Source: a virus. Taken from it: 64,000 nucleotides of DNA. The translations under genes were made by a program, and so were the position numbers. The stretch lies in UHGV virus genome UHGV-1364187, one strand, 5' to 3'. The notes below the pieces were generated by a model that did not search any database, was not told the DNA's origin, and worked only from the letters and a program-made list of their open reading frames with translations. Shown here one piece after another: positions 42,991-62,795 of this stretch (positions are counted from its first letter, which is position 1; each line of letters begins with the position of its first letter).

Positions 42991-43055
42991 ATTTAATGTC
43001 TAATAAACACTATAACATCATAGTAATTCTAGATATTTTAAGGAGGAATTTATTT

Positions 43056-43919
43056 ATGGAAGAATTTAAAAGTGTAATTAAAAGAAATGGTAAAATTGTA
43101 GATTACGATAGAAATAAGATTAAAACTGTTGTTAGAAATAGTGGTCTTACAGATGAAGATAAATTAGAAGAATTTACATTGGAAGTTGAAAAACGACTAC
43201 TAATAGAAAATGAATCAGTTGATCATCAAGGTATATTTGATGTTGAACTAATTCAAGATATTATCATCCATCTGTTAGGACTATTAGGATATAAAAACGA
43301 ACAAAATGAGTATAAGAGATATAAGAAAGAACGAGAAAAGATTAGACAGTCTAAATCTGATTTATTAAAAGTGGTTCATTCATTAGGTGTTGAAACTGAT
43401 AGAGACAATGGGAATGTTGGTAATAACTTCAGTGCCAAGTTATTACGTATTGCTAGCGAAACAAATAAATGTACGAATCTAGCATTAAATATTCCTAAGC
43501 ATTTAGCGAAACCTCATGAAAATCATGATTACCATACTCATGATCTAGATAGTTATAATCTTACTACAAATTGTTTACATAATGACACTGGTGCTATATT
43601 AAAGAGAGGATTTAATACTGGATATGGGTGGATTAAACCACCTAAAAGAATCGAATCAGCTGCCAACCTTACATGTATTATTATTCAATCACTTCAGAAT
43701 GATTTTTATGGTGGGCAATCTTGTGTTGATATTGATAATGACCTTGGTGAATATGTAGAACCAACAAGACAAGAAATTATTGAAAGATTAGAACCTACAA
43801 GAAAATATGTACCAGAAGATGTATTCAATGATACAGTTGAAAGAATGTTAGATGAACAAATTCATCAAGCAGCACAGAATATTTGTTATAATCTTAATAC
43901 TATGCATAGTAGAGCAGGT
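43056..43919 (+). CDS. nrdD: anaerobic ribonucleoside-triphosphate reductase NrdD, exon 1 (ATP-cone and N-terminal barrel); 3' boundary +/- 6 nt
   Basis: RBS aaggaggaatt. ATP-cone MEEFKSVIKRNGKIVDYDRNKIKTVV. The exon ends ..NTMHSRAG(Q), matching E. coli ..NTLHTANGQ. Confidence 0.8.
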
Positions 43920-45077
43920 CAAGATGACTTAGCCGTGTTAGATAGAAATATCTAATATGATTATCGGGGAAATTCGGTAGAGGTCTAAGTAAGATTATCA
44001 ATTAAAAAGAAATGATGATATTTATGAATTATAATAAAACTGAAATTGAAAGATTATATTTTGAAGAAAATATGACATATGATCAAATATCTGAAATTGT
44101 AGGATGTTGTAAATCTACTATAGGAAATATTATTAGATCAAATCCAAACTATAAAAAGAAATCACAAACACTATATAGTAATCCATTATTAGATGAAAAT
44201 TATTTTGAAATAATAGATACAGAAGCAAAAGCTTATATATTGGGACTTATGATAACAGACGGGAATGTTTGTTATTATGGTGATGGATATCGTATTAGAT
44301 TACAATTAAAATATGAAGATTCTTATATTTTAGAATTCTTTAAAAATCAGATTCACTGTTCCAATAAACTTATTGTTGATAAGCGAGATGGTTCTATTGC
44401 ATTTAGTATAAAATCAGAAAAGATGTTTTATGATTTATCTAAATATGGAGTAGTTCCTAATAAAACTTTAAATAATTATGTTCCACCAAATATACATCCA
44501 ATGCTAATGCCTCATTTAATAAGAGGAATATTTGATGGTGATGGTTGGATATCAAAATCGTTTGATAAAAATGGAAAGAAACATATAGCTATTGGTATTT
44601 GTGGAAATGAAAATTTTCTTCAACAATTCAGGATATATTAGTAATAAATGCTCGAGTAAATATGAATATTATAAATTCTTATAGCTCAATTAATGAAGCT
44701 CCATTATACCAAACAATGTGGTGTTCTATTGGAGATATTATTAGATTATATAGTTATTTATACATAGGTGCTAATATATATCTATTTAGAAAATATCATA
44801 CTATAATTGATATAATTTTATATGAAAATACCGAGAGGGCTTTAATCGAAAGTCTTTGTAACGCATAGGAGTTGAACGTTATGATAGTAAAAATACTCCC
44901 AAGAGTCTCCGACACAATATACTATAGGTATATTTGAGGTGGAAATTGCTCACCACCAAACCTAACGTTAAACGAGGGTGAATATATATGCTAGGCTGGA
45001 TTGGAAATGACCAATCGATGAAAATGAGGGAAACCTCCAGAGGTCTAGATAAAAAGCTAGACGTTAATAACAGTCCG
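43920..45077 (+). ncRNA. group I intron 1 in nrdD (~1.16 kb), carrying a LAGLIDADG homing-endonuclease ORF
   Basis: It interrupts conserved HSRAGQ|VPFSS. A heptamer GGTCAAG is shared at both exon ends, so the exact junction is ambiguous. R-like CCGAGAGGGC..AUCGAAAG and UCCGACAC elements resemble those of intron 2. Confidence 0.7.
44012..44641 (+). CDS. intron-encoded LAGLIDADG homing endonuclease (double-motif)
   Basis: Motif 1 AYILGLMITDGNV and motif 2 LIRGIFDGDGWI. Located wholly inside nrdD intron 1. Confidence 0.8.
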   Translation: MMIFMNYNKTEIERLYFEENMTYDQISEIVGCCKSTIGNIIRSNPNYKKKSQTLYSNPLLDENYFEIIDTEAKAYILGLMITDGNVCYYGDGYRIRLQLKYEDSYILEFFKNQIHCSNKLIVDKRDGSIAFSIKSEKMFYDLSKYGVVPNKTLNNYVPPNIHPMLMPHLIRGIFDGDGWISKSFDKNGKKHIAIGICGNENFLQQFRIY

Positions 45078-45380
45078 AGTCAAGTTCCATTTAGTAGTTT
45101 AAATATTGGACTTCCTAAAAATAAAAATGGTGCTAGAGTATGTATGGCATTATTAGAAGAATACGATAAAGGTATGGGAAAAGGAGAACAAATGATTTTT
45201 CCTAATATTATCTTTAGATGTAAAAAAGGTATTAACAAAAATCCTAATGATCCATATTATTATTTATATGATAAAGCTTGTGATGTAGCAAGTAGACATA
45301 TGAATCCAACATTTATGAATATTGATAGTAAAATTAATATGGAGTTATGGAAAAAAGGTATTACACCTGCAATCATGGGT
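45078..45380 (+). CDS. nrdD: NrdD exon 2
   Basis: VPFSSLNIGLPKN..ARVCMALLEEY..IFPNIIF..AIMG. It ends AIMG|, completing the E. coli TPMG|CRSFLG junction. Confidence 0.75.
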
Positions 45381-45689
45381 TAACAGAAAATGTTACACGG
45401 TTTCTACAGCTCATGTAAAACCTATCTAAACAGGGAAAGCTCATAAGAGTCAATCCTGTGCTAAATTCTAATATTATATAGAATATATAATTATTTATAC
45501 ATTGTATATAGTACTAGATAAATGCCGAGAGACTATCGAAAGACTATTTTATATAGAATCAAGTAGAGTAGGATACAAGTGTATTCGAAAAGATAGGCTT
45601 AGATATTTATATTATCTATGAAGATATAGTCCGACACCTATAGTGATATAGGAAAGATTATGGAAACGATAATCTTATAACAAGAAATG
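45381..45689 (+). ncRNA. group I intron 2 in nrdD (309 nt, no ORF)
   Basis: The 5' exon ends AUGGGU (U at the splice site). The IGS GCUCAU at ~45410 pairs with AUGGGU (P1 with U.G). The R element is GCCGAGAGACUAUCGAAAG and the S element UGAAGAUAUAGUCCGACAC. The intron ends ..AAAUG (omega G), and the next exon begins UGU (Cys of MGCRTYVG). Confidence 0.8.
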
Positions 45690-46649
45690 TGTAGAACATA
45701 TGTAGGTACAAATATCAATGGTCAAGAAGGACCATCTAGAAGAGGAAATAATGCACCTGTTACTATTAATTTACCTAGATTAGGTATTAAAGCTAAAGGT
45801 GATTTAAATAAATTCTGGAGTTTATTAGATGATATGCTTAATTTATGTAAAGAATCTTTATTACATAGACATAGTATATTATGTAAACTTAGAGTAAAAG
45901 ATTTACCATTTGCTGCAGGAGAAGGTATTATGATGGGTTCAGAAAATCTTGGACCTGATGATACTATCGAACCAATTCTTAAGAACGGAACATATGGAAT
46001 TGGATTTGTAGGTTTAGCTGAAACATTAGTAGCATTAATTGGTAAACATCATGGTGAATCTAAAGAAGCTGACGAATTAGGATATAAAATTGTAAGTCAC
46101 ATTAGAGAATATTGTGATAAAACTAAAGAAGAGACACATCTTAATTTCTCATGTTACTATTCACCTGCTGAAAGTACAGCTGGAACATTTGCAAATGCAG
46201 ATAGAGAAAAATATGGTATTATTAAAGGAGTTACTGACCATGATTTCTATACAAATTCTGTTCATATTCCAGTGTATTATAATATCTCTATTAAAGATAA
46301 GATTGATATTGAATCTAAATATCATTATTTAGGAAATGGTGGTCATATCTTTTATGTGGAAGTTGATGGATATCCATCTAAAGAACAAATTAAGAAAATT
46401 GTAGATTATGCGTTTGATCAAAGTGATATTAGTTATATGGGAATTAATTTCCATATTAGATATTGTAAAAAATGTGGTAAACGTGTAACGAATAATGTTA
46501 TGGTATGTGATTGTGGAAGTACAGCTTTCCAAGGTATTAGTCGTATTACTGGATATTTAGCCCTAGATGGAAGATGGGGTCAAGGAAAAGTTGCAGAAAG
46601 AAAAATGAGAGTATCGCATACTACAGGTAAAAATGTATATACAGAATAA
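45690..46649 (+). CDS. nrdD: NrdD exon 3 (C-terminal half, with Zn ribbon and glycyl-radical loop)
   Basis: CRTYVG..NNAPVTINLPRLGIKAKGDLNKFWSLLDD matches E. coli CRSFLG..NNLGVISLNLPRIALEAKGDEATFWKLLDE. Also GVTDHDFYTNS, CKKCG..CDCGS, and the glycyl-radical motif RITGYL. Confidence 0.85.
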   Translation, partial: CRTYVGTNINGQEGPSRRGNNAPVTINLPRLGIKAKGDLNKFWSLLDDMLNLCKESLLHRHSILCKLRVKDLPFAAGEGIMMGSENLGPDDTIEPILKNGTYGIGFVGLAETLVALIGKHHGESKEADELGYKIVSHIREYCDKTKEETHLNFSCYYSPAESTAGTFANADREKYGIIKGVTDHDFYTNSVHIPVYYNISIKDKIDIESKYHYLGNGGHIFYVEVDGYPSKEQIKKIVDYAFDQSDISYMGINFHIRYCKKCGKRVTNNVMVCDCGSTAFQGISRITGYLALDGRWGQGKVAERKMRVSHTTGKNVYTE

Positions 46650-49069: not shown

Positions 49070-49074
49070 CAAAT

Positions 49075-49100
49075 AAGTAGGTACTTAAATGTACCTACTT
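49075..49100 (+). terminator. rho-independent terminator
   Basis: 10-bp stem aagtaggtac/gtacctactt, then attttatttttt. Confidence 0.7.
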
Positions 49101-49129
49101 ATTTTATTTTTTGAGAGGATGTGTTTATT

Positions 49130-49552
49130 ATGATTAATGGAGTTGTTGAAATTAGAGATTATAGGATAGAACAATCAGAATTATTATATAAGACTCTAAA
49201 AGTCTATAATATAATAGACAATGTATCTAATCGATCTATATTCTCAGTACATATTAATCATAATAGAGTTATTATGCATACTTTATTTTCTAAAGAGTCT
49301 ATAACACTAGATATTAATATAGACAATATTAACGATATAAGAAAACATATTAAACATATAAAACTAGAATATAAAGATGACAAATTCTTTGTATATATTA
49401 ACGATATAAAAGTAAGTGTACTGAATGTAAGTCTGTATAGAAATATGTATAAAATGAATAGTAAAAGAGTAGGGTATTACCCTACTCTTTTACTATTTGT
49501 CCAAAACTCCACATTTACTAGGAATAACACTATAGTAATCGAAAGGAGGTAA
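49130..49552 (+). CDS. hypothetical protein (~140 aa)
   Basis: Start taken at MINGVV after gagagga. Confidence 0.45.
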   Translation: MINGVVEIRDYRIEQSELLYKTLKVYNIIDNVSNRSIFSVHINHNRVIMHTLFSKESITLDINIDNINDIRKHIKHIKLEYKDDKFFVYINDIKVSVLNVSLYRNMYKMNSKRVGYYPTLLLFVQNSTFTRNNTIVIERR

Positions 49553-49557
49553 TCTAT

Positions 49558-52500
49558 ATGGCACAAAGAACAAGTTTAACAAAATATGCAAAGAATTTAG
49601 TAAAATCAACTAAATATGCTACTGTTGATGTTGTAAAGGAATTAATGCCAAGTGCAACAGATTTTATGGAAACAAATAATGAATTATTTAAAGATATTAC
49701 GTCTAATATACGTAATAGACGTGTTATTTTTAAAAGAGTAAACGATAAAGTTACTCAATCAAAAATCTATGAAACTGTAGATGAAGCTAGAAAAAATATC
49801 ATAGAAGATATAAAATCTGGTAATTTATATAACAAAGATCCAATCAGAGAAAGACGTATTAATAAAAAATCTGGTATGGAGAGTATGTTAGGTGGATTTG
49901 ATGATTTTAGTGATTTTGAGTTTGAAATGGATGATTCATTCGAATTTGAAGATAGTGATAATGCCGAATTAGCTGATGCTTTTGATGATTCTAATAGAAC
50001 AACATCAGAAATGATCGCTAATACAATTGCAAAAACATCATCTAATCAGATCCAATCACAAAGAATATCAAGCCAGATGACAATGATGCAATTACAAGAA
50101 GGATTTACATTAGTAAATTCAAATCTTGGTGGAATAGGTAATGCTATTTCTGAATTAGGGAATACTATGTCATCTATTCAACAAACTAATGCTGAAAATG
50201 CAAAAACTTATTACGAAAAATCTACTGACTTGCAAGCTAATATGGTATCATATCTTAAAGAGTTAGTAGATATGAAAAAATCTGAAATGGGATTAGATGC
50301 TAAGAAAGATACATCTCGTGGACCTAAATCATATAATGACATAACTACATATGAAGGTATGCCTGATCTTAGAGCATATGGTAATATATTAGCTAGTAAA
50401 TTAAATGATAATTTATCAATGATTACAGGTCTTAATGAAATGGGTATCGAAGGTGGAAACATGTCAATGCAATTTGCTATGTCACCACTTGCATTTCTTC
50501 CTAAGATGGTTGTAAAGAAGGTTATGGGAGTAGCTGTTCAAAATTCAGCAAAAGCTTTAGATAATACATTATCAAATATATTTGGTACATTCATATCTGC
50601 TATGAATGATATGGCTGATAATTCTGGATATATGTCAATAAAAGGAATGATAGGACGATTCTTTGGTTTAAATGACACTGTAAAAGATGAACGTAGTATA
50701 AGAACAGACTATGATAAAGGAAATAAATCATGGAATGGTAAAGCCGAAAAAGCATTAACTGAAGTAATTCCTACATTAATTTCTAAAATTTTAGCTGTAG
50801 TATCTGGAGCAAATGAGATGACATATAACTACGATAATGGTAAATTTACTACAGTAAAACAATTAAGACAAGATGTAAAAAATAGAACTACTAATGAAAT
50901 GAATAGTGCATTTTATGATATAAGAAATAAAATGGACGAAATGATGAGATCTATTAATTTTGATTTTTCTGATGAAGACACTAAAGCATCATTTGAAAAA
51001 GATTATAATAGATTCTTTGAATATTTCTTTAAATCTAATAATAGATTTAATCCAAATAAGAAAAACTATGAAGATTATGATGGTCTTGGTATTGATAGAG
51101 GTAATTTTGAAATTATATCTACATTGTTTGAAAGACTAGATCCATCATTAAAAATGTCTATGGATAGTAAAAAAATAAGAGCTAGAGGTGCTATTAATGA
51201 TTATATTGATAAATTAGGACAGAATAGTCCAGTATATACTATCCTTAATAATGATTCAAAATTAACAGATGTCGATAAATCTGTAGATGGAAAATCTGGA
51301 GGGTTATTAACAGCATCTAAAGATTCATTAGGACATGACATATTCTGGTTTTTGGATAATATTCTTAAATCTATTAGAGATTTAAATCCAGATTCTGAAT
51401 ATAATGTAAATGGAAAGAAACGTAAAAAGAAAAGAACTAAAAATATAACTTCAACTCCTATTGTTCCATCTTCAGATAAAACATCTTCTGCTGGAAATAG
51501 GAAGAGATATGTTAGTCCAGATGCTCTTACTGCAGAATCTATATTATATAATAGAGCAGAGGGTACTACTATATCTGGTATTATTAATAATAGATTGGAT
51601 ATTGCTGACGAACAGAGAAAATTGGAGGAAGAAGAAAAAACATCTATTATTGATGATTTATTAGACTCACCATCTTTACCAGCGAAAGCTAAAGCTTTCA
51701 TGAAAAGAATGAAATCTACTAAAGAAGGTGCTAGAAATGGTATATCTGGACTTTTAGATACTGTAAATCTTAAGATATATCAAGCTATGTATGGTAATAA
51801 AAAATATAAAGGTAAGGATGTAAATGGTATTATAGGAGTAATGATGGAAAATATCGAAGAATCATTCACCAAGTTCAATACATTCTTAGATGAAAAGATC
51901 TTATCTCCATTGAAAGAAAAGTTAGATGAACAAGGTGGAATTAAAGGTATTCTTAAAAACACATTAGGAATAGATGTTGATTCTATTAAAGAAAGATTCT
52001 TTGGTAAAGATACTCTTTTTGGTAGAACTGTTCAATCTATTAAAGATAATTTTAAATCTGCTTATGAGTATTCTAAAGGAGCTGTAAAAAACACATACAA
52101 TGAAATCTATGATAAATTAGGTGGAAATAGATACAATAGTAGATTCAATCGTGTAATGAACACTATTAAATATGGTAAGAAAAATACACAAGGTATGTTT
52201 ATTGTAGATTCAGATGGACAACTTAATATACTTAATCAAGTAAAAAAAGTTAAACCTTCAAATGTTACAGAAGATGGAAGATTAAACACTCAAGAAGAAG
52301 CTTCATCTGTTATGGAAGGACAAATGAGTTTCTTACCAAAAGACGAACAACAAGCTATAAAAGAAGCTGCAAATAATATGAATGTTCCAGTAGAAAATAT
52401 TGCAGATGCAATCAATAAAGGTAATATCGAAAAATATGCTAAAGGTGGAAATATTCATAAAACTAAAATTGTTATGGTTCATGATGGAGAAGAAATCATT

Positions 52501-55500
52501 ACCAAAGAAGAAAAACGTAAGAGAGATAGAGAAAGAGCTTATGATCTAAGAGTTAAAAATAACATAAATAAACTAAATACTGAAATGAGCGAAGATTTTG
52601 TTGGGCCTTTACCTTTAAAAGATCAAAAAATAAAAGATTTCTTATCTGGAATTAATGAAGAAAACCTTGGAACTATTAAAGATTCTTTAGGAAAAGATTT
52701 TAAAGCTACTACTGTAGAAACTTTAAGACAGGAAATTATAGAAGCTGTTGGTCATAAAAAAGGTGATCCTACATTAATGGAAACCATGAAAGACACTGCA
52801 TCTGATGGAATAAATAAAGTAATGTCAGTGTTATTTGGTACAGATGAAAATGGTGATGAAAAAGCTGATGATCTTAAAGAACGTGGAAAAGCTGCAATGA
52901 AAGATATTATGGGTAAATTTAAAGAATATCTCCCATCTGGAATATCTGGTGCATTAATTGGTACTCTAGCTGGTGGTGTTGTTGGTATGCCTATGATTGG
53001 TGCAGCATTGGGTTCATCTATTAATCTTATTAGAAAATCAGATAAACTTCAATCATATTTATTTGGAGATTTAGATGAAGAAGGTAAGAGAATAGGTAAT
53101 GGTAAACTTCCAACCAAATTTGTAGATGCTATGAATAAATATGGTCCAGATATGAAAAAGTACGGTATTACAGGTGCAATTACATCTATTTTACCTTTTG
53201 TTCCTGGTGGTCCTGTTGCTGGATTATTATTAGGAGCAGGTGTTGGGTTTGCTAAAAATAACGCTAAAGTACAAGACTTCTTATTTGGAGATATGGGCAT
53301 ATTAAAAGGTCTTAAAGGTAGTGGTGAGAAATTAAAGAAAGCTTTACCTAAAATGGGTCTAGGTGCGGCTGCTTTAGCATTAACTGGTCCATTCGGTTTA
53401 CTTGGTAATGCTATGCTTGGTGCTGGTGCAGGATTTGTTACTCAAACAAATAAATTCCAAGAATTTATGTTTGGTAAAGATGGTAAAGATAAAGATGGTA
53501 ACCCTATTAAAGTTGGTGGATTTTTACCAATGATTAGGGATAGAGTAATCAACCCTATTAAAGAATTTGGTTCTACATTAGGTGATAAAGTTAAAACTTT
53601 TGTAGATGAAGAAATAAGAAAACCATTTCATAAAGCAATGAGTCCATTTATAGAAGAATTTAAATACCAAGGTAAGAGATTGTTTGATGGTATAAAAGAT
53701 TCTATCAGTGGAGCTATTAATAATGTATTTGAAAAGTCAGTTGGTAAACCATTAAATGAACTTATCGAAGATAAGATTGTAAAACCAATTACAGGATTAT
53801 TTAAGAAAGTATTTAACTTTTTAGGAGGTATTGTTGGTGGTATTCTTAAATTCCCTACTAAAATCATGTCAGGAGCTGCAGACTCTTTAAGAATTAAACA
53901 TTTAAAACAAGGTCGTGCTGATTATATGTCTGATGAAGAATTAGGTGAATTAAAAGAAAAGAAACCATTTGATTATTTAATGGCTACATCAGGACAACGT
54001 TTCATAAATGCACTTAATGAACGTGGTTTATTTGGTTCTATGAAAGATTTATTTACTAGAGATAAAGATGAAGTTGTTACTGACGAGGAATCTGTTAAAG
54101 AAAAGAAACCTACATTCAGAGAAAAAGTATCAGGAATAGTAGCTAAAGGTTTAGATTCTTATAATGCTAAAAGATTAGCTATTACAGAAAGAGTATCATC
54201 TGGGTATGCTAATACTAAAGAAGAATTAAGAAATGCTAAACAAAATCTTAAAACAAAAGCTTATCAAGCTGCAATGAATGCAACAGATAAATTATCAGCT
54301 AGTATTGAAGCTGGTAATAGGTATTCTAAAGTTTCTTCTTATAGGGAATCAGAAACAGAAAGCGAGGGAGACTCGACTGGTTCTTCAGAGAAGCGTGTTG
54401 ATCTTAGAACTAGAACACCTAAAATTAAATCTGTAAAAACACAAAATGTAAGTTTAGTAAATCCAGAAGTTGATGCTTTGAAACAACAAGTAAAACAATT
54501 AACCACCGAGCTTGCAGTAATGCAAAAAGAAAAAGAAGAAAATAAAGATACATCTTCAGACAAATCATCAGAATATATCAAAGATATAAGAGATGAGGTT
54601 AGAGGGCAATTAGATGGAGTTGGATACAATATCCATACGATTGCTAATATACTAGTAGAACAATTCGGTATGCCTAAGATTAAAGCTACAGGTGCTAAAG
54701 TATCTCGTGGAAATCTTAAACGAAAATTATGGTTTGAGAGAATGTTTGGATTTATTCTTAATCCTGTTAGAAAAGTTAAAGATAGTATTCATAATCTATT
54801 CTGGGGTAAAGATGGTAATGGTGGTTTATTAGGCACTCCAATGAGATGGGTTAAGAAAGGATTTGAAAAAATAGGTAATATTGGAACATTAATTGGAAAA
54901 GGATTAGCTGGTATACTAAATATTGGTTCAGGTATTGTTCATGGACTTGGTATATTAGGTGGTATCTTTAAAGAAAGTTTAGCTGCAATAGCTCCAGCTA
55001 TTGGAAGTTTATTAAAAGGTGCAGTTAAAGTATTAACGTTACCTATCGATTTATTATCAGGTGCAATATCAGGTCTTGGTAATATGCTTGGTGGATTAGC
55101 TAATGGTATTGGTATTCTTGCTGGAAAAACTATTGAACTTGTTTCTTTAGTTCCATCATTAATTACTAATATTGGTAAACTGACTATTGAAGTTGGTAAA
55201 TTTGCATTCAAATTAGTTAAGAAAGGTGCAGAACTTATAACAGCTCCAATAAGATGGATGGCTAATGGTATTATTGATATATTTAGAGGAAAAAATAAGA
55301 AAAATAAAAAGAAAGAAATCAAGCATATTATAGAAGGTGGTTTCTTAGATAAAATCAAAGAACCTATCGATATTAGTGGTGAACAAGATAGACATGATAA
55401 ATTATTATCTTTCTTTGATGATAAATTTAATAAATTATTTGATTTATTAAGTGGAACTGATAATAAAAAGAAATCTATTACAAATAATATTACTAATAAA

Positions 55501-58500
55501 GAAGAAATAGAAGAAGATAAACCAAAATTATCTACTGAAGAATTACAAAAGATGTCATTTAGTGATTATATTAGATCTGGTCAAAGTATGTCTCTTGATG
55601 ATTTAGAAAGATATGCAGACGCAAGAAAGAATCTAATGACTACTGTTAAAAAACCAGAACAACCTGCTAATAATGGAGATGTATTGAAAAAATCTTTATA
55701 TGATATTATCAATGATAATAGAGCAGGAATGAAACCATCATATGATAAACCACTAAATGTTCAAACTGAAGAACAAATTAATATGCCTACTGAATTTGGT
55801 GTTATTAGATATGATAAAGATACTTCTGGTGAATTAAGACCAGTACAAGACTCAGTGTATACTCAGTATAAAGAAAATCAAGATAATCTTGCTGAACACA
55901 ATTCAAAAATGTTCAATCTTCTTAATACTGGAGATGCAGAGGATGACGGTAAATCTACTAAGAAAGAATCTTGGATTTCTAAGATTGCTAAAAATATTGG
56001 TAGTGTATTAATGGGTGGTACTCTTCTTAAAGTTGTTGGTGCAGGTTTAATGGCTGGTGCTGTATATGATCTAGCTAAGAATGGAGAAAATTCATTTGTT
56101 GGTAAATTTGTTTCTTTCTTTAGTGATAAAGTTTTACCAAAAATAGTAGATTTTACAATAAATACAGCAATTCCAGTATTAACAGATGCATTACTTTCTC
56201 TGTCAGAAATGATATTAGATAGAGTTACAAATCCACAAAAATATTCAAATCCAGATCATGAATTATCAAAAGCTAATGCGAAAGCTAAACTCAGTGATGG
56301 ATCTTATATTACTGATGATGGAGTTTATGATAAAAATGGTAATTGGATAATGCAATCATATACACCTACCACAACTGGTTCATTAATAGAAAAAGGTTGG
56401 AATAAAATAGCTGGAAATAAAATAGAATCATGGGCAAAAGATACATTCGGTGAGAATTCAATAGGAGCTAGATTATTTTCAACAAATGTATTATCAACAA
56501 CTATAGATGATAAAGAGATAGAAAATGTTTCTCATAAAAATTCAGAAACAACAAAAACTAATAAAAACAAAGAAGAAACAATGTCAGATAGTGAGTTCTT
56601 TTCTAAAGCTATATTTGGCAAAGGTAAAAAGAAATATGGTCTAGGTGAATCATTCTTCTCACAAAATGATCCTAGATGGAGTAATTTACCATTTAATACT
56701 GAAAATGATACAGAAGCTCAAACTATTGCAGATTCTGGTTGTGGTCCAACAGCCGCAGCTATGGTAGCTGATCAATACGGAAGAGCTAATCCAGTAGAAG
56801 CTTCAGCTTTCGCTTTAAATAATGGATATAAAGAACAAAATGGTGGTACTGATCCTAGATTCTTTAAAGATTATTTCAATAAAAAAGGTATTGATAGTGA
56901 TATTGATACAGATATTGATACTAATTCTGATAAGAAATTATCTATTATTAATAATCTTAGAAAGAATAAACCTGTTGTATTAATGGGTAAATCTAAAGGT
57001 GGTAATACACCATATGGTAAAGAATATCCACATTATGTTGTAGCTACTGGAATGAGAGGCGACAAGATTCAAATTAATGATCCCAACTCTAATCATGGTG
57101 GAGAATTATACGATGCTAATGATACACTTAGATCTTCAACTATAAGCGTAAAAACTGGCAGAGGTAAGAAATCTAAATATGGTAGAGTAAATATGCAAGC
57201 TATGCTTGACACAACAATGAATGTTGCTGGAGCTGTATCAGGTGCAGTTATGCCTACATCTAGTACATCATCAGTAGCTAGAACGGTAACAAATAACTTC
57301 AGTAGTGCTAGTGGATTTGCAACATCATCAGATGGATCTTTAACAGAAGGTAAAAGTGCACTTAATTTCGTAACAGATTTAGGTACCACATTTACTAAAG
57401 CTATCGGTGAATTCTTTGGTGTTGATATGTTTTCTAGTAATACTGCTAGTAGAGATGTTGGTTCCTATGGTTCTATGGGAGGTTCTGTACAAGTAGGTAC
57501 GGCAGGTCAATGTTTTGATGCTAACGTTGCAGCTCAAGTTATCAATGATTTCTTTAAAAATAGTCCTAAACTTAGTGGAAAAGGTGCTACTATTGTATCT
57601 ATTGCTCAACAAGCTTGTCATAAAAGTGCTAATGGACAAAATCCTGGTATTGATCCATTCATTCTTGCAGCTATTATGATGCAAGAAACAGGAGGAAATT
57701 CTAATGCATTAAATAACAAGAATAACCCTGGTGGTGTTAAGGGAAGTAATGGATTACAAGTATTTAGTACAATTGAAGATGGTATTATGGCTGTTGCTAA
57801 GATTATCCATAGAGAATGGGTAGTTAATGGTAATAGCAGTATTGCTGGATTAGGTAGTATTTATTGCCCAGTAGATGCTGCAGATGATCCTAATGGATTA
57901 AATAAAAACTGGGTTGGAGGAGTAACCAAATTCTATAACCAGTTAGTACAAGCAGCTATAGCTGCAGGAGGTTTATTAGGTACTTCTGATAATATGGCTA
58001 TTAGTAATATGGGAACAGCTAATAATGTTGCAATACAAATTGTACGAATAGCTAAATCATATATAGGCAAAGTTAAATATGTATTTGGTGCAGAAACTCC
58101 AGATAAAGGTGTATCTGACTGTTCTGGATTTACTCAAGCTGTATATAGAAAAGTAGGTCTTGCTATTGGTAGAAATACTGAAGCACAAATTACTAATAAA
58201 AATATTGTAAAAGTTAGTGATTCATACAACTTTAAAGCTCAACCTGGTGATTTAATATTCTTCAAAAACACTTACAATTCTGGATATATTTATGGTGTAT
58301 CTCATGTTGGTATTTGTACTGGAGAAGGAACAAAATTTATTGAATGTAATAGTAGTAAGGGTGTTTGTGTAAGTGATTATACTAGTAACTATTGTAAGAA
58401 ATATTTCTTAATGATTAAACGTCATACTGCATGTGTCGACAAGAATGCTATGTATAAGACATCTCAAGCACAACAAACTGCTAAAAAAGCAAATACTACA

Positions 58501-59625
58501 ACTGCAACAACTACTACTAAATCAAATGATCCACTTAAAAATGCTAATAACGCTATTAATTCAAAAAATGCAACTTACAATGCATATAATACCCTTTCAG
58601 GAAAAGGTAAATCAAAAGATATTAGATATAACTCTGATATTAAGAAACCATCTAAGAGAATTAATAGAACTGTGTCTAGTAATAATGATTATTTAGAAGA
58701 AATAAATTATGGTAAAGGAATTGGAAAAGTAAACTTAGAAAAACTTAAGAAATTACCAAAAGTTCAAAAATTAATTTCAGAAGAGTTATCTAAAGCTGTT
58801 AAGAACAAGTCAAAAACTCCAGTATCTACAGCTGCAGCAAAAGTATATGCTAAGCTTAAAGCTTCTAAATTTACTGATGTAACAGATTCTGAAGGAAATT
58901 ACATTGATTTCGTTGAACTTGAAAGAAACAATAATGCTACTCCTATTGTTGATGGTAAATTAAACTTAAGAGAATTTGATGCTGATGGGAAATTAATCGA
59001 TTGGGATGCTGTAAATGAGAAGAATGGTGTTGTTACAAAACAGGATGATACTCCAGTTATTGGAGAAGCTAATCCTATCTCTACAGTATTAAATACAATC
59101 TATAATAAACTTACAGGGAATAATCAAGATACTGCTAAGAAAGAAGATCTTGATTCTGAAGGTAATAAAATAGATTGGAATGAAGTTGAGAAGAATAACA
59201 ACATCGAGGTTAAGATTCCTACTAATGCTTCTCAATTAACAGATCAACAATTGAAGAAGAAAGAAGCTGAGAATAATACTACTCAAACTAATACGACATC
59301 TACAAACAATAATACAAAAGAACAACAGCAAATTGAGGCTCAACAAAAAGCTGTAGAAGCTAAACAAACTCAAGTTGATAATCAATTGACTGCATTAACT
59401 AATATAGCTAAATCTGTAGAGAGTATTTATAACTTAATATTATTATTAGTAAATAATGGTATAGATATTAAGAACTTAGCTGAAATTCTTAAAGCTATTG
59501 GTGTATCATCATGTGATGGAGGAAGCAATAATGCGTTCTTTATTCCACAAAATAATACACAATCATCAGATGCCCATAATGCCGATATGGAACTTCTAAG
59601 TAAACTTAAAGAAATAGCTAAATAA
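49558..59625 (+). CDS. giant (3355 aa) tape-measure-like virion protein with C39-like peptidase, GH73-like glucosaminidase and NlpC/P60 peptidase domains
   Basis: RBS gaaaggaggtaatctatATG. Gly-zipper TM segments typical of tape-measure proteins at about 52890-53420 (GISGALIGTLAGGVVGMPMIGAALGSS, LPFVPGGPVAGLLLGAGVGFA, GLGAAALALTGPFGLLGNAMLGAGAGFV). C39-like DSGCGPTAAAMV...PHYVVATG at about 56640-57160. GH73-like ILAAIMMQETGGNSNALNNKNNPGGVKGSNG at about 57480-57950. NlpC/P60 VSDCSGFTQAVY...SHVGIC at about 58020-58430. Confidence 0.7.
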   Translation: MAQRTSLTKYAKNLVKSTKYATVDVVKELMPSATDFMETNNELFKDITSNIRNRRVIFKRVNDKVTQSKIYETVDEARKNIIEDIKSGNLYNKDPIRERRINKKSGMESMLGGFDDFSDFEFEMDDSFEFEDSDNAELADAFDDSNRTTSEMIANTIAKTSSNQIQSQRISSQMTMMQLQEGFTLVNSNLGGIGNAISELGNTMSSIQQTNAENAKTYYEKSTDLQANMVSYLKELVDMKKSEMGLDAKKDTSRGPKSYNDITTYEGMPDLRAYGNILASKLNDNLSMITGLNEMGIEGGNMSMQFAMSPLAFLPKMVVKKVMGVAVQNSAKALDNTLSNIFGTFISAMNDMADNSGYMSIKGMIGRFFGLNDTVKDERSIRTDYDKGNKSWNGKAEKALTEVIPTLISKILAVVSGANEMTYNYDNGKFTTVKQLRQDVKNRTTNEMNSAFYDIRNKMDEMMRSINFDFSDEDTKASFEKDYNRFFEYFFKSNNRFNPNKKNYEDYDGLGIDRGNFEIISTLFERLDPSLKMSMDSKKIRARGAINDYIDKLGQNSPVYTILNNDSKLTDVDKSVDGKSGGLLTASKDSLGHDIFWFLDNILKSIRDLNPDSEYNVNGKKRKKKRTKNITSTPIVPSSDKTSSAGNRKRYVSPDALTAESILYNRAEGTTISGIINNRLDIADEQRKLEEEEKTSIIDDLLDSPSLPAKAKAFMKRMKSTKEGARNGISGLLDTVNLKIYQAMYGNKKYKGKDVNGIIGVMMENIEESFTKFNTFLDEKILSPLKEKLDEQGGIKGILKNTLGIDVDSIKERFFGKDTLFGRTVQSIKDNFKSAYEYSKGAVKNTYNEIYDKLGGNRYNSRFNRVMNTIKYGKKNTQGMFIVDSDGQLNILNQVKKVKPSNVTEDGRLNTQEEASSVMEGQMSFLPKDEQQAIKEAANNMNVPVENIADAINKGNIEKYAKGGNIHKTKIVMVHDGEEIITKEEKRKRDRERAYDLRVKNNINKLNTEMSEDFVGPLPLKDQKIKDFLSGINEENLGTIKDSLGKDFKATTVETLRQEIIEAVGHKKGDPTLMETMKDTASDGINKVMSVLFGTDENGDEKADDLKERGKAAMKDIMGKFKEYLPSGISGALIGTLAGGVVGMPMIGAALGSSINLIRKSDKLQSYLFGDLDEEGKRIGNGKLPTKFVDAMNKYGPDMKKYGITGAITSILPFVPGGPVAGLLLGAGVGFAKNNAKVQDFLFGDMGILKGLKGSGEKLKKALPKMGLGAAALALTGPFGLLGNAMLGAGAGFVTQTNKFQEFMFGKDGKDKDGNPIKVGGFLPMIRDRVINPIKEFGSTLGDKVKTFVDEEIRKPFHKAMSPFIEEFKYQGKRLFDGIKDSISGAINNVFEKSVGKPLNELIEDKIVKPITGLFKKVFNFLGGIVGGILKFPTKIMSGAADSLRIKHLKQGRADYMSDEELGELKEKKPFDYLMATSGQRFINALNERGLFGSMKDLFTRDKDEVVTDEESVKEKKPTFREKVSGIVAKGLDSYNAKRLAITERVSSGYANTKEELRNAKQNLKTKAYQAAMNATDKLSASIEAGNRYSKVSSYRESETESEGDSTGSSEKRVDLRTRTPKIKSVKTQNVSLVNPEVDALKQQVKQLTTELAVMQKEKEENKDTSSDKSSEYIKDIRDEVRGQLDGVGYNIHTIANILVEQFGMPKIKATGAKVSRGNLKRKLWFERMFGFILNPVRKVKDSIHNLFWGKDGNGGLLGTPMRWVKKGFEKIGNIGTLIGKGLAGILNIGSGIVHGLGILGGIFKESLAAIAPAIGSLLKGAVKVLTLPIDLLSGAISGLGNMLGGLANGIGILAGKTIELVSLVPSLITNIGKLTIEVGKFAFKLVKKGAELITAPIRWMANGIIDIFRGKNKKNKKKEIKHIIEGGFLDKIKEPIDISGEQDRHDKLLSFFDDKFNKLFDLLSGTDNKKKSITNNITNKEEIEEDKPKLSTEELQKMSFSDYIRSGQSMSLDDLERYADARKNLMTTVKKPEQPANNGDVLKKSLYDIINDNRAGMKPSYDKPLNVQTEEQINMPTEFGVIRYDKDTSGELRPVQDSVYTQYKENQDNLAEHNSKMFNLLNTGDAEDDGKSTKKESWISKIAKNIGSVLMGGTLLKVVGAGLMAGAVYDLAKNGENSFVGKFVSFFSDKVLPKIVDFTINTAIPVLTDALLSLSEMILDRVTNPQKYSNPDHELSKANAKAKLSDGSYITDDGVYDKNGNWIMQSYTPTTTGSLIEKGWNKIAGNKIESWAKDTFGENSIGARLFSTNVLSTTIDDKEIENVSHKNSETTKTNKNKEETMSDSEFFSKAIFGKGKKKYGLGESFFSQNDPRWSNLPFNTENDTEAQTIADSGCGPTAAAMVADQYGRANPVEASAFALNNGYKEQNGGTDPRFFKDYFNKKGIDSDIDTDIDTNSDKKLSIINNLRKNKPVVLMGKSKGGNTPYGKEYPHYVVATGMRGDKIQINDPNSNHGGELYDANDTLRSSTISVKTGRGKKSKYGRVNMQAMLDTTMNVAGAVSGAVMPTSSTSSVARTVTNNFSSASGFATSSDGSLTEGKSALNFVTDLGTTFTKAIGEFFGVDMFSSNTASRDVGSYGSMGGSVQVGTAGQCFDANVAAQVINDFFKNSPKLSGKGATIVSIAQQACHKSANGQNPGIDPFILAAIMMQETGGNSNALNNKNNPGGVKGSNGLQVFSTIEDGIMAVAKIIHREWVVNGNSSIAGLGSIYCPVDAADDPNGLNKNWVGGVTKFYNQLVQAAIAAGGLLGTSDNMAISNMGTANNVAIQIVRIAKSYIGKVKYVFGAETPDKGVSDCSGFTQAVYRKVGLAIGRNTEAQITNKNIVKVSDSYNFKAQPGDLIFFKNTYNSGYIYGVSHVGICTGEGTKFIECNSSKGVCVSDYTSNYCKKYFLMIKRHTACVDKNAMYKTSQAQQTAKKANTTTATTTTKSNDPLKNANNAINSKNATYNAYNTLSGKGKSKDIRYNSDIKKPSKRINRTVSSNNDYLEEINYGKGIGKVNLEKLKKLPKVQKLISEELSKAVKNKSKTPVSTAAAKVYAKLKASKFTDVTDSEGNYIDFVELERNNNATPIVDGKLNLREFDADGKLIDWDAVNEKNGVVTKQDDTPVIGEANPISTVLNTIYNKLTGNNQDTAKKEDLDSEGNKIDWNEVEKNNNIEVKIPTNASQLTDQQLKKKEAENNTTQTNTTSTNNNTKEQQQIEAQQKAVEAKQTQVDNQLTALTNIAKSVESIYNLILLLVNNGIDIKNLAEILKAIGVSSCDGGSNNAFFIPQNNTQSSDAHNADMELLSKLKEIAK

Positions 59626-59635
59626 AAAAATAATA

Positions 59636-59666
59636 ATGTTGTGGAATAACCCAATTCCACAACATT
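59636..59666 (+). terminator. rho-independent terminator after the giant gene
   Basis: Stem atgttgtggaat/ttccacaacat, then tattataatt. Confidence 0.6.
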
Positions 59667-59696
59667 ATTATAATTAATATGAAAGTAGGTGATATA

Positions 59697-61517
59697 ATGG
59701 CTAAAGAACAAGTAAGTTATAGAGTAAGATTAAAAAATACAACTTGTGACTTATATGAAAATTTATCTAAAAAATCTAAAGTTGTAGCTACTATTAAAAA
59801 CACCAAAGATTACATTTGTTCTGTAACTGATGATACTAATGGAATGTGGTTCTATTTAGCTAATCCTGCAGGATGGATATATGGCGGAGATGTAACTATA
59901 GTTGCAAAAGGATCAACTCAAGAATTAATGAATCTAAAACCAGAAAATCAAAATAAACAAACTACAACAAATCAACCAGCCACTAAGACAAACCAATATA
60001 CAAATAATACCGTAAAGAATATAAATGACGGTTCTACTAGTAGTACTAAAGGTGGTGGCGGAGTAAGTATGGACACTGGTCAATATACAGGAGATATGGA
60101 TACTTCTGTAACAGGGACTGGTGTAAATGATATATCAACATTAGATCAATCTCAGTTTACATATGAAGCTGATCTTGATAAATATGATATTGGTGGCGAT
60201 TTAGAATCTCAGTTAGATTTTAAAACAATTAAAGGTATATTTGGTATGCCATATCAATATTCTACAAGTGTAGATAGAAGACTAAGTGGAAAAAATGATG
60301 AAATGGAATATGGTAGAAAATTCTCAGAAAAAATTGTAATGAATGCTCCATTATTATTTATGACTCCTGGACGACCAGCTTTTATGGCTGGATATTCTGA
60401 TGAATATAAAAGAAAGATAGCACAAAAGCTATACGGTATGGGATTAAATGATGATGAAGCATTATCTGATGTAAGTGATGGTAGATATTATACATTTGAA
60501 TTTGCATATGATGATTACTATACATATGTAAATCAAATGGTACAGAAAGCATCAGTTATGGCTGGAATAGGTGATGAGAAATTTGATGGTGTTCCATTAA
60601 AACGATATAATTGGGCTAATTATAAAAATGATAATTTAAAGACATTTATTAGTGGTAGTGAGTATGTGTGTTTTTATACAGAATTTGAGCCGCAAGTAAA
60701 TGAATCATTTGGTAATACTACTGGAGATAGTTCTATAGCAAGTACTATTAACCAGTTATCTGATTTAGGTAAAGAAGCTGCATTTTTAATGGGAGCTGGT
60801 GCTGGTATTGATTTGGATGCTGCTATTAAATCTGGATTAAATGAAAACTTAGAATCATTTACAAATTTCTTTAATAAATGGGGTGGAAGTGGAGTAGCAT
60901 CTGTTGCTAATAAATTGTTTAAAGGTGTTAGTACTTTAGCATTAGGTGGACATATAGCTTTCCCTGAAATTTGGAAAGACTCAGATTTCACACAATCATA
61001 TAATATAACAGTAAAATTTGCATCTCCAGATGGAGATCCATATAGTCAATTCTTAAATGTATTAGTTCCATATTATCACTTATTAGGATTTATGCTTCCA
61101 CAAGCATTAGGAGTAAATGATTATACATCTCCATTCTTAGTAAGAGCATCAATGGGTGGTGCATTTAATTGTGAAATGGGAATGATTACAAGTCTTGATG
61201 TAACAAAAGGTCCTACATGGAATCAATATAATCTACCAATGGAAATGACTGTAAGTTTTACAATAAAAGATATGTACAAAACGATGTATATGACTAACAC
61301 TGATAATGTATCAAAATTCTTAAAACATTCACAATTTGTAGATTTCTTATCTAATTCTGTAGGAGTAAATGTAAATATGCCAGAGATAGGTCGTACTTTA
61401 AATTATTATAAGAATTTCTCTATTGATAGTAAAATTAATAACGCTGTAAATAATATTGGAAATAGTATGAATAATTTCTTATCAAATCAAGTATCCAAAT
61501 TAAAGATATTATGGTAA
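59697..61517 (+). CDS. tail/baseplate-associated protein candidate with an N-terminal SH3-like domain (~606 aa)
   Basis: Start at MAKEQV after gaaagtaggtg. The N-terminal ~80 aa are SH3b-like (KNTKDYICSVTDDTNGMWFYLANPAGWIYGGDVT). Lies directly downstream of the tape-measure-like gene. Confidence 0.4.
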   Translation: MAKEQVSYRVRLKNTTCDLYENLSKKSKVVATIKNTKDYICSVTDDTNGMWFYLANPAGWIYGGDVTIVAKGSTQELMNLKPENQNKQTTTNQPATKTNQYTNNTVKNINDGSTSSTKGGGGVSMDTGQYTGDMDTSVTGTGVNDISTLDQSQFTYEADLDKYDIGGDLESQLDFKTIKGIFGMPYQYSTSVDRRLSGKNDEMEYGRKFSEKIVMNAPLLFMTPGRPAFMAGYSDEYKRKIAQKLYGMGLNDDEALSDVSDGRYYTFEFAYDDYYTYVNQMVQKASVMAGIGDEKFDGVPLKRYNWANYKNDNLKTFISGSEYVCFYTEFEPQVNESFGNTTGDSSIASTINQLSDLGKEAAFLMGAGAGIDLDAAIKSGLNENLESFTNFFNKWGGSGVASVANKLFKGVSTLALGGHIAFPEIWKDSDFTQSYNITVKFASPDGDPYSQFLNVLVPYYHLLGFMLPQALGVNDYTSPFLVRASMGGAFNCEMGMITSLDVTKGPTWNQYNLPMEMTVSFTIKDMYKTMYMTNTDNVSKFLKHSQFVDFLSNSVGVNVNMPEIGRTLNYYKNFSIDSKINNAVNNIGNSMNNFLSNQVSKLKILW

Positions 61518-61557
61518 ATAATGAATATACCGATAACAATAGAATAATGTATCTCGA

Positions 61558-62349
61558 ATGATACATTATTCTAATTCTGTTTATGGAGGTGATATTACGA
61601 AAGCCAAAAATAGAAAACAAAAACAATTTGAATATGCTCAAAAATTTGGGCACATCCCTGTAAATTATAGAGATAGATTAGAGTGGATGTATGATGAATA
61701 TAATATAAATGAGATTAAAGCGAATAGGATATTACAAAAAAGAGATGCAATGCTCTGTAGTTTATTCTATCATGATATAGATTTAGTTTTATACCAATTA
61801 CCAGAAGGTACACCTAGACCTAGATTTAGACTAGTTAATAGAACTAATATGATAGACTCTGCATTAACAAATGGTCAATTTGTTCATGTGTATAATTTAT
61901 ATGCTAAAGATGATAGTATATATATGAATAAAATGGTAGAGACTGAAATTAGAAGTTTGGAACAGCTTATTTGTACACCTATTAATGTTGTATTTAATAT
62001 ATTTTTAAAGACACCATCAGCTTTTAATATAGATGATATGTTTTTAGCAGAGATGGGGTTAATACGACCGATAGTCAAACCAGACTATGATAATCTAGCA
62101 AAAAAATATTCAGATATGTCTAACCACAATATATGGTTAGATGATCAGATGGTTATGAGCGGAACAGTTAATAGATATTATTCCGTTCTACCAAGAATAG
62201 AAATAAATATAAGATTCCTTAATATGCTTTATAATAATTATCAATATAAAGCTGTTAGTGGAAGAAAAGATTTCTCGGATTATAATTGTAATGTGGACTA
62301 TTTTAAATACGGAGGGATAAATGATGCTAGCCAAATTATATACAAATAA
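61558..62349 (+). CDS. rusA: RusA-like Holliday-junction resolvase family protein
   Basis: LPEGTPRPRFRLV...VHVYN, KPDYDNLAKKYSDM (RusA D.DNL.K) and NIWLDDQMV (RusA FWLDDAQVV). The start is uncertain: no RBS at 61558. Confidence 0.5.
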   Translation: MIHYSNSVYGGDITKAKNRKQKQFEYAQKFGHIPVNYRDRLEWMYDEYNINEIKANRILQKRDAMLCSLFYHDIDLVLYQLPEGTPRPRFRLVNRTNMIDSALTNGQFVHVYNLYAKDDSIYMNKMVETEIRSLEQLICTPINVVFNIFLKTPSAFNIDDMFLAEMGLIRPIVKPDYDNLAKKYSDMSNHNIWLDDQMVMSGTVNRYYSVLPRIEINIRFLNMLYNNYQYKAVSGRKDFSDYNCNVDYFKYGGINDASQIIYK

Positions 62350-62749
62350 TAAAGTAGATACAATTTATAACTTAAAGATTATTATGATTAATTTTATATA
62401 TTCAAAAGAAAACATTACATTACTTATGCAATGTATTCAAGAAAGATTAGAATCTTCTTCTATCAATTTCTATCAGAATGATATGTCGATAAATGTAAGA
62501 ATAAAGAAGATTAATACTAAAAAGATTGTAGATTTTGTACATAACCCATTATTTTATTATAATTACTTATCAGATATTTTCATTGGATTTCTTAGTGCTA
62601 ATATAGAAAATATCAAGAATAAGTATATTGAAATTTTTGGATATAATAAAGATGACATAGATTTCATAGAAGAACTATGTACAACACAAAACTATTGTCA
62701 TCTTATCAATATTCTCACATTTAATAATAATATTATTATTAAATTATAA
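62321..62749 (+). CDS. hypothetical protein (142 aa)
   Basis: RBS acggagggataa. Confidence 0.45.
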   Translation: MMLAKLYTNNKVDTIYNLKIIMINFIYSKENITLLMQCIQERLESSSINFYQNDMSINVRIKKINTKKIVDFVHNPLFYYNYLSDIFIGFLSANIENIKNKYIEIFGYNKDDIDFIEELCTTQNYCHLINILTFNNNIIIKL

Positions 62750-62750
62750 A

Positions 62751-62788
62751 AAATATCCCTATAGACTAAAATGTCTATAGGGATATTT
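62751..62788. terminator. bidirectional terminator between convergent genes
   Basis: 16-bp stem aaatatccctatagac/gtctatagggatattt, then T7. Confidence 0.75.
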
Positions 62789-62795
62789 TTTTTGT

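Follow-up and report, generated by a model that had tools for sequence, protein, structure and literature searches.

A giant, probably wall-degrading and tape-measure-like tail protein of the phiKZ gp181/AR9 gp204 type in an uncultured jumbo phage

What purpose is served by a viral protein of 3355 amino acids (aa) in which a long non-enzymatic body is followed by several enzymes? Such a protein is encoded by the open reading frame (ORF) at positions 49558-59625 of a 64,000-nucleotide stretch of the virus genome UHGV-1364187, the whole of which is referred to here as the window. The original prediction had described the product as a tape-measure-like protein with three cell-wall hydrolase domains, suggesting a DNA-ejection device that must cross a thick Gram-positive wall. 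Sequence homology and gene order indicated that it is the counterpart of phiKZ gp181 and AR9 gp204 in an uncultured AR9/PBS1-like jumbo phage. It is thus an elaborate variant of a known infection device, the gp181-type giant tail lysin of jumbo myoviruses, and not a new kind. A giant, wall-degrading, tape-measure-like protein inside the tail of a jumbo myovirus is considered its probable nature. Within this explanation, the assignment as a tail-associated lysin is made with high confidence, whereas the evidence for a function in setting tail length is evenly balanced.

The relationship was traced through the N-terminal region. A tblastn search of phage genomes with aa 1-2300 returned matches only in the Bacillus jumbo phages AR9, PBS1 and BpSp, where the AR9 homologue g204 (1925 aa) is annotated as 'tail tape measure protein' and its PBS1 counterpart as 'lysis domain protein'. 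At the nucleotide level, the ORF had no megablast match among 50,697 phage records. A hidden Markov model (HMM) of the N-terminal domain (500 aa), built from metagenomic relatives, found AR9 g204 (E=8e-65) and BpSp gp263 (E=2e-65) as matches over the full length of the model, as well as gp101 of the Fusobacterium nucleatum phage JD-Fnp4 (E=1e-46). For phiKZ gp181, the family profile aligned over aa 280-525 with gp181 aa 339-565 (hhalign probability 87.8%, E=3e-6), and hmmsearch yielded E=7e-8 in a search of 4 sequences. The genetic context pointed in the same direction. The order of an RNA polymerase (RNAP) beta gene on the negative strand followed by the giant protein, a gp182-like protein and RusA, the giant and gp182-like genes being on the positive strand, recurs in phiKZ, SPN3US, AR9 and JD-Fnp4/1. 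In phiKZ, gp182 comes after gp181 (2237 aa, tail-associated endolysin), and the RNAP beta subunits (gp178-180) lie upstream on the other strand. The 612-aa protein downstream of the giant ORF is widely conserved in phiKZ-like phages, and in the window the RNAP gene is separated from the giant ORF by NrdD/NrdG genes. In a review citing Briers 2008, phiKZ gp181 is described as an experimentally shown structural peptidoglycan hydrolase of the baseplate and tail (PMC5380687). SPN3US has a gp181-like gene (2372 aa) in the same gene order. Tailless particles of this phage lack its tape measure protein, gp239 (PMC5105663), which, judged by position, is probably the product of the gp181-like gene.

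The known relatives delimit what is particular to the window protein. phiKZ gp181 is likewise giant, has its enzyme near the C-terminus and shares a remotely homologous N-terminal region; its gene, too, is followed by a gp182-type gene and preceded by RNAP beta on the other strand. However, it carries one SLT-type domain and no C39-like, GH73 or NlpC/P60 domain. No 19-aa stretch of gp181 was strongly hydrophobic at the threshold applied, the protein is 1,100 aa shorter, and the host of its phage is Gram-negative. AR9 gp204, PBS1 gp95 and BpSp gp263 (1797-1925 aa) are homologous to the window protein over the N-terminal 470 aa (BLASTP 23% identity, 523 aa); AR9 and BpSp have the virion protein and RusA downstream as in the window, and by RNAP beta all of these phages fall in the same clade as the window phage. 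Their giant proteins are ~1,400 aa shorter, with one VgrG3-like lysozyme domain (PF21277) against three enzymes in the window protein, no C39-like domain, and no Gly-zipper module found by the family HMM. The Staphylococcus jumbo phages MarsHill and DC4, from the same broad phage group, also encode hydrophobic segments and wall hydrolases beside a gp182-like gene, but distribute them over an adjacent 'tape measure' (M23, ~1,990 aa) and 'tail lysozyme' (PF18013 + NlpC/P60, ~1,962 aa) without an N-terminal HMM match or a C39-like domain. An origin of the window protein by fusion of DC4_259 and DC4_260 was considered and dropped, as neither matches the N-terminal HMM.

Giant proteins of this family were found to be common in sequence databases, where they are variously labelled and uncharacterised. 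A large-database search retrieved 64 relatives of 2751-5786 aa, most of them on contigs of ~250 kb, and an exhaustive search with the N-terminal domain recovered 1164 cluster representatives (416 at E<=1e-30), the domain being N-terminal in every one. Across searches, family lengths ranged from 2.7 to 6.9 thousand aa (maximum 6902 aa). The plan of these proteins is fixed: hydrophobic Gly-rich repeats come after the N-terminal domain, and a long spacer leads from them to a C39-like peptidase and to wall hydrolases that can replace one another. All 189 full-length members contained the N-terminal domain together with the Gly-zipper module, and 173 (92%) had one to three copies of the C39-like domain, while NlpC/P60- or CHAP-like domains were present in 101 and GH73-like domains in just 33. 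In none of the full-length members does an enzyme begin within the first 2,000 residues, and the first C39-like domain begins at a median residue of 2704 (range 2032-4815). Precomputed Pfam lists added M23, PF18013, VanY, SLT, Amidase_2 and GDSL as alternative hydrolases. The triple set of C39-like, GH73 and NlpC/P60 domains is kept in the closest subclade (relatives P0002-P0005), down to 36% identity. Far from being singular, this enzyme combination is one draw from a large modular family. Fragments in BFVD derive from uncultured 'Myoviridae sp.' metagenomic viruses and are labelled 'Tail tape measure' or 'Morphogenesis protein 1 hydrolase', and a 2026 gut phageome survey counted proteins of the architecture Peptidase_C39_2-Peptidase_C39_2-Phage_lysozyme2-NLPC_P60 among 'endolysins'.

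The ORF itself proved to be real, as predicted. At the 27% G+C of the window, stops are expected at random at ~8.5% of codons, or ~1 per 12, and the chance of a random open frame of 3355 codons is near 1e-129 (both calculated here from composition). With a stop expected about every 12 codons, the ORF cannot be due to chance. An identical protein is on record from a 256,505-bp metagenomic contig (ENA ERZ27229639 k119_250412). Relatives with 50-60% identity to the protein measure 3147-3195 aa, a similar length that rules out an assembly fusion or artefact.

All sequence motifs quoted in the original prediction for the three enzymes were found (CGPTAAAMV at aa 2395, HYVV at 2492, MMQETGG at 2707, NNPGGVKG at 2722, DCSGFTQ at 2854 and SHVGIC at 2915), and domain searches placed the C39_2 and NlpC/P60 assignments above their Pfam thresholds and GH73 below. 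The NlpC/P60 endopeptidase is unambiguous at the level of sequence: PF00877 reached 66.6 bits (E=2e-18), where the cut-off is 23. The predicted triad consists of an invariant Cys2855 together with His2916 and Glu2929. The solved structures most closely related to it belong to wall endopeptidases, for example the Clostridioides difficile CTn1-Orf17 hydrolase (Tn916-like; 4hpe, E=3e-12). The middle domain scored under the Pfam cut-offs, with 17.2 versus 30.2 bits (E=0.008) for Glucosaminidase PF01832 and 15.8 versus 21.3 for SLT. Nevertheless, it matched PDB entry 8yxk by sequence (E=3e-10, 27% identity), identified in the fold-search description as the glucosaminidase domain of C. difficile Ecd09610. 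A model of the domain with a predicted local distance difference test score (pLDDT) of 84.5 had the same entry as its top Foldseek match (E=1e-5, template modelling (TM) scores 0.65/0.78), followed by the Staphylococcus aureus autolysin AtlE 4pi9 (probability 0.99). Furthermore, a local jackhmmer search on full-length homologues tied the middle domain to eight PF01832-annotated domains with classical GH73 motifs, and Glu2710, Tyr2769 and Trp2785 were invariant across the middle-domain alignment. Sequence and model thus point to a divergent GH73-type glucosaminidase with a catalytic Glu, so that this claim held through bridging matches and invariant residues (Glu2710/Tyr2769) and not through the Pfam gathering score. 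In Ecd09610 a glucosaminidase is followed by an endopeptidase in tandem, and both domains are lytic in vitro (PMC9405191). The window protein has a similar glycosidase-then-endopeptidase tandem, and the best solved relatives of its GH73-like and NlpC/P60 domains are in Ecd09610 and CTn1-Orf17, respectively; unlike the window protein, both of these proteins are small and have neither a structural body nor a C39-like domain.

The C39-like domain was assigned by Peptidase_C39_2 (PF13529) with 46.9 bits as a segment and 39.4 bits for the whole protein against a cut-off of 24. An alignment of 40 such domains from related proteins showed Cys2395, His2492 and Asp2508 to be invariant and Gln2369 to be at least 90% conserved. 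A PDB sequence search with the domain returned only noise. The AlphaFold model built with the 40-domain alignment reached a mean pLDDT of 95.7, and its best PDB fold matches were Bacillus anthracis 3erv, the double-glycine leader peptidase domains of PCAT1/ComA and the pseudomurein endoisopeptidase PeiR. Conserved residues and predicted fold therefore describe an intact papain-fold peptidase. The original claim that it is a wall hydrolase found no support: its fold neighbours are mostly leader-peptide proteases, PeiR being the sole wall isopeptidase among them, and the domain stays constant while wall hydrolases are swapped. Since fold neighbours include both kinds, the substrate may be a cell-wall peptide or a protein or peptide precursor.

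Two basic aromatic-Gly motifs, IFGKGKKKYGLG and TGRGKKSKYGRV, bracket the C39-like domain of the window protein. In the 173 proteins with this domain, G-[RK]-G was ~10x enriched in two sharp peaks flanking the first C39-like domain (105 before and 97 after). The longer form [YFW]-G-[RK]-G (e.g. KYGRG) occurred 170 times in the C-terminal cassettes compared with 16.8±3.8 in composition-preserving shuffles. It was 10.6x denser there than in the preceding body, and it brackets other catalytic modules too. These motifs may be hinges, domain caps or processing sites. One tentative interpretation, which we regard as unlikely, is that the C39-like peptidase is not a third wall hydrolase but a built-in processing protease that would cut the giant protein at the [YFW]-G-[RK]-G motifs around it and the other modules. 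This idea arises because the domain is constant (92%, including Fusobacterium phages) while wall hydrolases are shuffled, because the motifs peak on both of its flanks, and because its nearest folds are double-glycine leader-peptide proteases.

In the non-enzymatic body, the N-terminal domain is most conserved at aa ~366-479 (LTEVIPxxLxKI...SG..E..Y.YD.GKF). The central glycine-zipper repeats of the original prediction are present as hydrophobic Gly-rich segments, the first three in tandem repeats of ~65-75 aa each, with Gly/Ala-rich segments located by hydropathy at aa 1129-1151, 1207-1229 and ~1262-1290. A poorly conserved spacer of ~900 residues separates the glycine-zipper module from the enzymes. 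The entire body (aa 1-2394, nt 49558-56739) is free of Cys; family-wide, the sequence ahead of the first C39-like domain has a median Cys content of 0.065%, against 0.5% for the sequence that follows it. Models of Pfam, NCBIfam and PHROGs gave no match of any kind on the first ~2,350 aa. At the other end of the protein, the C-terminal extension is conserved in the closest relative P0002 only. The N/T/Q-rich, low-complexity sequence noted before was confirmed there (41% of aa 3201-3300), but the supposed C-terminal Cys pair was not, Cys3319 being the only Cys after 2959. A short sequence of the pattern D-x-[ED]-G-[NK]-x-I-D-[FW]-x-x-[VL]-[EN]-x-[NK]-[NG] is repeated three times in the extension, at aa ~3118, 3158 and 3214 (nt ~58900-59250), in a region absent from P0002. 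No known domain was found in the extension or its repeats with Pfam, and a PDB sequence search gave only noise; the three repeats might be a binding repeat.

Cultured relatives that connect this architecture with a measured tail were found through a weak tblastn match of the Gly-zipper module to the Fusobacterium nucleatum phages JD-Fnp1, 4, 6 and 7. In JD-Fnp4 gp101 (2978 aa), the Gly-zipper module (E=1e-26) and the C39-like domain (E=4.5e-20) were accompanied by an SLT-like domain, and JD-Fnp1 gp176 is a 3026-aa version of the giant protein. Their GenBank label, 'papain-like cysteine protease AvrRpt2', covers one small domain only, and by sequence both belong in full to the family of giant tail proteins of the gp181/gp204 type. 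They are the closest cultured members sharing the N-terminal domain, Gly-zipper module and C39-like domain with the window protein, and the order of giant protein, gp182-like and RusA genes is identical. In contrast, they have an SLT-like domain beside the C39-like domain where the window protein has GH73 and NlpC/P60, show ~25% identity to it, and belong to phages with a Gram-negative host and a 180-kb genome, versus 256 kb for the window phage. JD-Fnp4 and JD-Fnp1 are myoviruses with unusually long contractile tails of 300±4 and 335±5 nm, respectively (PMC9670143). For these ~3,000-aa members, this corresponds to ~1.0-1.1 Å of tail per residue, counted over the whole protein and in two phages only. 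The usual ratio for tape measure proteins (TMPs) is 1.5 Å per residue. A ruler exceeding 2,000 residues would be expected to give tails of about this size (300-335 nm), which is the best indirect support for the tape-measure reading.

Great length combined with hydrophobic, Gly-rich segments is itself a tape-measure trait. The TMPs of T5 (pb2), TP901-1 and phiIPLA35 are long extended proteins with hydrophobic segments and a peptidoglycan hydrolase on the C-terminal side that acts from outside, as would be expected of the window protein. They differ in that they come from siphoviruses, measure 900-1,200 aa and carry one enzyme each; no sequence relationship to them was detected, and a ruler function is proven for TMPs of this type but only proposed for the window family. 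Virion lysins are often parts of TMPs (PMC6024856). Copies of the giant protein may lie extended inside the lumen of a ~300-nm contractile tail with their C-terminal enzymes at the baseplate end, and may help to set tail length. Upon sheath contraction, the protein would be expelled first; the glucosaminidase would cut glycan strands and the NlpC/P60 domain stem peptides, so that the sacculus would be opened locally. The hydrophobic Gly-rich segments could then enter the cytoplasmic membrane and form or line a conduit for the DNA and a co-injected virion RNA polymerase. The C39-like peptidase, as the constant enzymatic part, might cut a wall-linked peptide or trim the giant protein at the bracketing basic Gly motifs.

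Several observations weigh against this explanation. No canonical tape-measure model (such as PF10145, TIGR01760 and the PHROG families) matched the whole protein or its segments in Pfam, NCBIfam and PHROGs searches, and PDB sequence searches with aa 1-1100 and 1101-2350 gave only noise. The tape-measure label of the original prediction is thus upheld by homology and position (AR9 gp204, JD-Fnp4 gp101 and phiKZ gp181), not by a known model. No sheath or tube gene was recognised among the window ORFs scanned, and chaperone genes are not adjacent. The genes 5' of the giant ORF are NrdD/NrdG and two small ORFs without a family. The small upstream ORF at 49121-49552 showed no similarity to AR9 g203, and no frameshifted chaperone pair was evident. 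Jumbo phages, it should be added, commonly lack tube-chaperone-tape measure-hub gene modules. BpSp gp263 is not listed in the virion proteomics of that phage, and no proteomic or structural datum was found for AR9 gp204. The tails of JD-Fnp1 and JD-Fnp4 differ by 35 nm but their proteins by merely 48 aa, which does not explain the difference, and if each residue counted towards tail length, the longest family members (6,902 aa) would call for tails of implausible size. Finally, Staphylococcus jumbo phages split comparable functions over two ~2,000-aa proteins without an N-terminal HMM match.

These points bear on an alternative that we consider possible but not likely, in which the protein is a tail or baseplate lysin and central 'puncturing' protein without a role in length, the ruler being another protein on the 256-kb contig. 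Such a role would agree with phiKZ gp181, which is usually described within the needle-like cell-puncturing device and not as a ruler, with the separate 'tail lysozyme' and 'tape measure' of the Staphylococcus jumbo phages, with the missing tape-measure model match, and with the poor scaling of protein length to the two measured tails. However, more than 2,000 residues ahead of the first enzyme are hard to explain for a mere spike, the tails of the isolates reach 300-335 nm, and no other long hydrophobic-repeat protein was seen in the 64-kb window or the AR9 and JD-Fnp loci examined.

It is highly improbable that the protein is packaged in the head as an ejection (pilot) protein, like T7 gp16 or the inner-body/ejection proteins of phiKZ and SPN3US, leaving the capsid with the DNA, digesting the wall and bridging the envelope. 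Although its gene adjoins those of virion RNAP subunits, whose products are head-packaged in phiKZ, although PHROGs puts the gp182-like family under 'head and packaging', and although internal head proteins with lysin domains exist, phiKZ gp181 is assigned to the tail and baseplate, the SPN3US tape measure protein is lost along with the tail in tailless particles, and Gly-rich repeats with C-terminal enzymes fit the tape-measure pattern of T5 pb2 and TP901-1. A multi-catalytic endolysin for lysis from within, as suggested by the 'endolysin' listing of C39_2-C39_2-Phage_lysozyme2-NLPC_P60 proteins in the 2026 survey and by the name 'lysis domain protein' in AR9-like records, can practically be dismissed for a protein of 3355 aa, 2,350 of them non-enzymatic, that has a conserved structural N-terminal domain, hydrophobic repeats and no cell-wall-binding domain found with Pfam, and that is homologous and syntenic to a structural protein.

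A Gram-positive host is plausible, because in RNAP beta the closest isolates, at just ~30-33% identity, are jumbo phages of Listeria (LPJP1), Bacillus (AR9/PBS1) and Staphylococcus. In a survey of phage lysins, glucosaminidase and CHAP domains were common in Gram-positive-infecting phages, and Peptidase_C39_2 was found in those only (PMC8223927). Low G+C and the anaerobic NrdD/NrdG fit Clostridia or Fusobacteria alike. The claim that the device must cross a thick Gram-positive wall goes beyond the evidence, since the same architecture with a C39-like domain exists in phages of the Gram-negative Fusobacterium nucleatum.

The features of the locus are collected in Table 1.

Table 1 Features of the giant ORF, its protein, the neighbouring genes and the cultured relatives. 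Positions are nucleotides of the window, except in the last two rows
Feature	Position	Strand	Remarks
Whole ORF, 3355 aa, ATG start	49558..59625	+	Giant virion (tail) protein by homology, AR9 gp204/phiKZ gp181 family
Ribosome-binding site AAAGGAGG	49542..49549	+	8 nt before ATG
Conserved N-terminal domain, aa 1-500	49558..51057	+	Family signature; profile matches to AR9 g204, BpSp gp263, JD-Fnp4 gp101, phiKZ gp181
Conserved module, aa 1100-1460	52855..53937	+	Holds three tandem glycine-zipper-like repeats
Three tandem repeats, aa ~1125-1310	52930-53487	+	Each a hydrophobic Gly/Ala-rich segment, then K-x-Q-x-[FY]-[LM]-F-G
Second hydrophobic Gly-rich region, aa ~1760-1870	54835..55167	+	By hydropathy (1786-1869)
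Third hydrophobic Gly-rich segment, aa 2147-2168	55996..56061	+	By hydropathy
Linker motif IFGKGKKKYGLG, aa 2352-2363	56611..56646	+	Just before C39-like domain
C39-like papain-fold cysteine peptidase (predicted), aa 2360-2530	56635..57147	+	Gln2369, Cys2395, His2492, Asp2508
Linker motif TGRGKKSKYGRV, aa 2533-2544	57154..57189	+	Just after C39-like domain; S/T/G-rich spacer next
Divergent GH73-type glucosaminidase-like domain, aa ~2655-2805	57520..57972	+	Predicted catalytic Glu2710; conserved Tyr2769, Trp2785
NlpC/P60 endopeptidase domain, aa 2825-2975	58030..58482	+	Pfam match 2839-2954; Cys2855, His2916, Glu2929
C-terminal extension, aa 2976-3355	58483..59622	+	Lys-rich part, three short repeats, N/T/Q-rich stretch, single Cys3319
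N/T/Q-rich stretch, aa 3201-3300	59158-59457	+	41 N/T/Q per 100 residues
Perfect hairpin, 19 bp	49457..49497	.	60 nt 5' of ORF
Perfect hairpin, 18 bp	59630..59671	.	Directly 3' of stop codon
Downstream partner gene, 612 aa, virion structural protein	59679..61517	+	phiKZ gp182 homologue (BLASTP E=1e-22; phrog_20401)
RusA-like resolvase	61558..62349	+	Completes gene order common to AR9, BpSp, JD-Fnp4/1
RNA polymerase beta-type subunit, 1445 aa	35687..40024	-	Opposite strand, upstream of giant ORF
JD-Fnp4 gp101	L008 5938-14874
JD-Fnp1 gp176	L009 5055-14135

Further RNAP beta-type subunit genes were located on the negative strand at 8496-9761 and 12743-13996, and a large HNH endonuclease gene at 11479-12666; several separate RNAP beta-type genes together with a large HNH gene mark the contig as that of a jumbo phage of the AR9/phiKZ type that has multisubunit RNAPs. 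The gene for the anaerobic ribonucleotide reductase, nrdD, is divided among three ORFs (42996-43955, 44988-45383 and 45687-46649) that match successive parts of the PHROG 487 profile, with an HNH endonuclease ORF (44012-44641) in the first gap. Rfam detected no group I or II intron at the split nrdD, and neither the Rfam nor the tRNA scans of the window gave a match. Besides the two hairpins flanking the giant ORF, long perfect AT-rich hairpins with stems of 14-19 bp also occur in the gene cluster at 49071-49104, 61540-61573 and 62748-62791, and 11 terminator-like sites were seen versus 3.2±2.2 in shuffles. As a hairpin falls within the 3' end of the small ORF 49121-49552, the true extent of this ORF is doubtful. 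The adjacent ORFs 71-1798 and 1872-3599, both of exactly 575 aa, share no detectable similarity despite their duplication-like appearance.

No concept is overturned by these findings, as tail proteins with muralytic domains are well established. They provide a function, at the strengths given above, and a family name for one of the largest genes in widespread uncultured ~250-kb phages, and they connect it with phiKZ gp181, which has been studied by experiment, and with Fusobacterium phages that can be cultivated and used to test the predictions. Surveys based on domains alone mislabel proteins of this family as endolysins or 'papain-like proteases'. What the conserved C39-like peptidase and the motifs on either side of it do is a point worth following: if the self-processing interpretation were true, the protein would be a self-cleaving tape measure that releases or activates interchangeable wall-degrading cargo at tail assembly or ejection. 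Moreover, virion-borne wall hydrolases occur in this family as exchangeable cassettes, among them GH73, PF18013, SLT, NlpC/P60, CHAP, M23, VanY, Amidase_2 and GDSL, and so form a natural library useful for enzybiotic mining.

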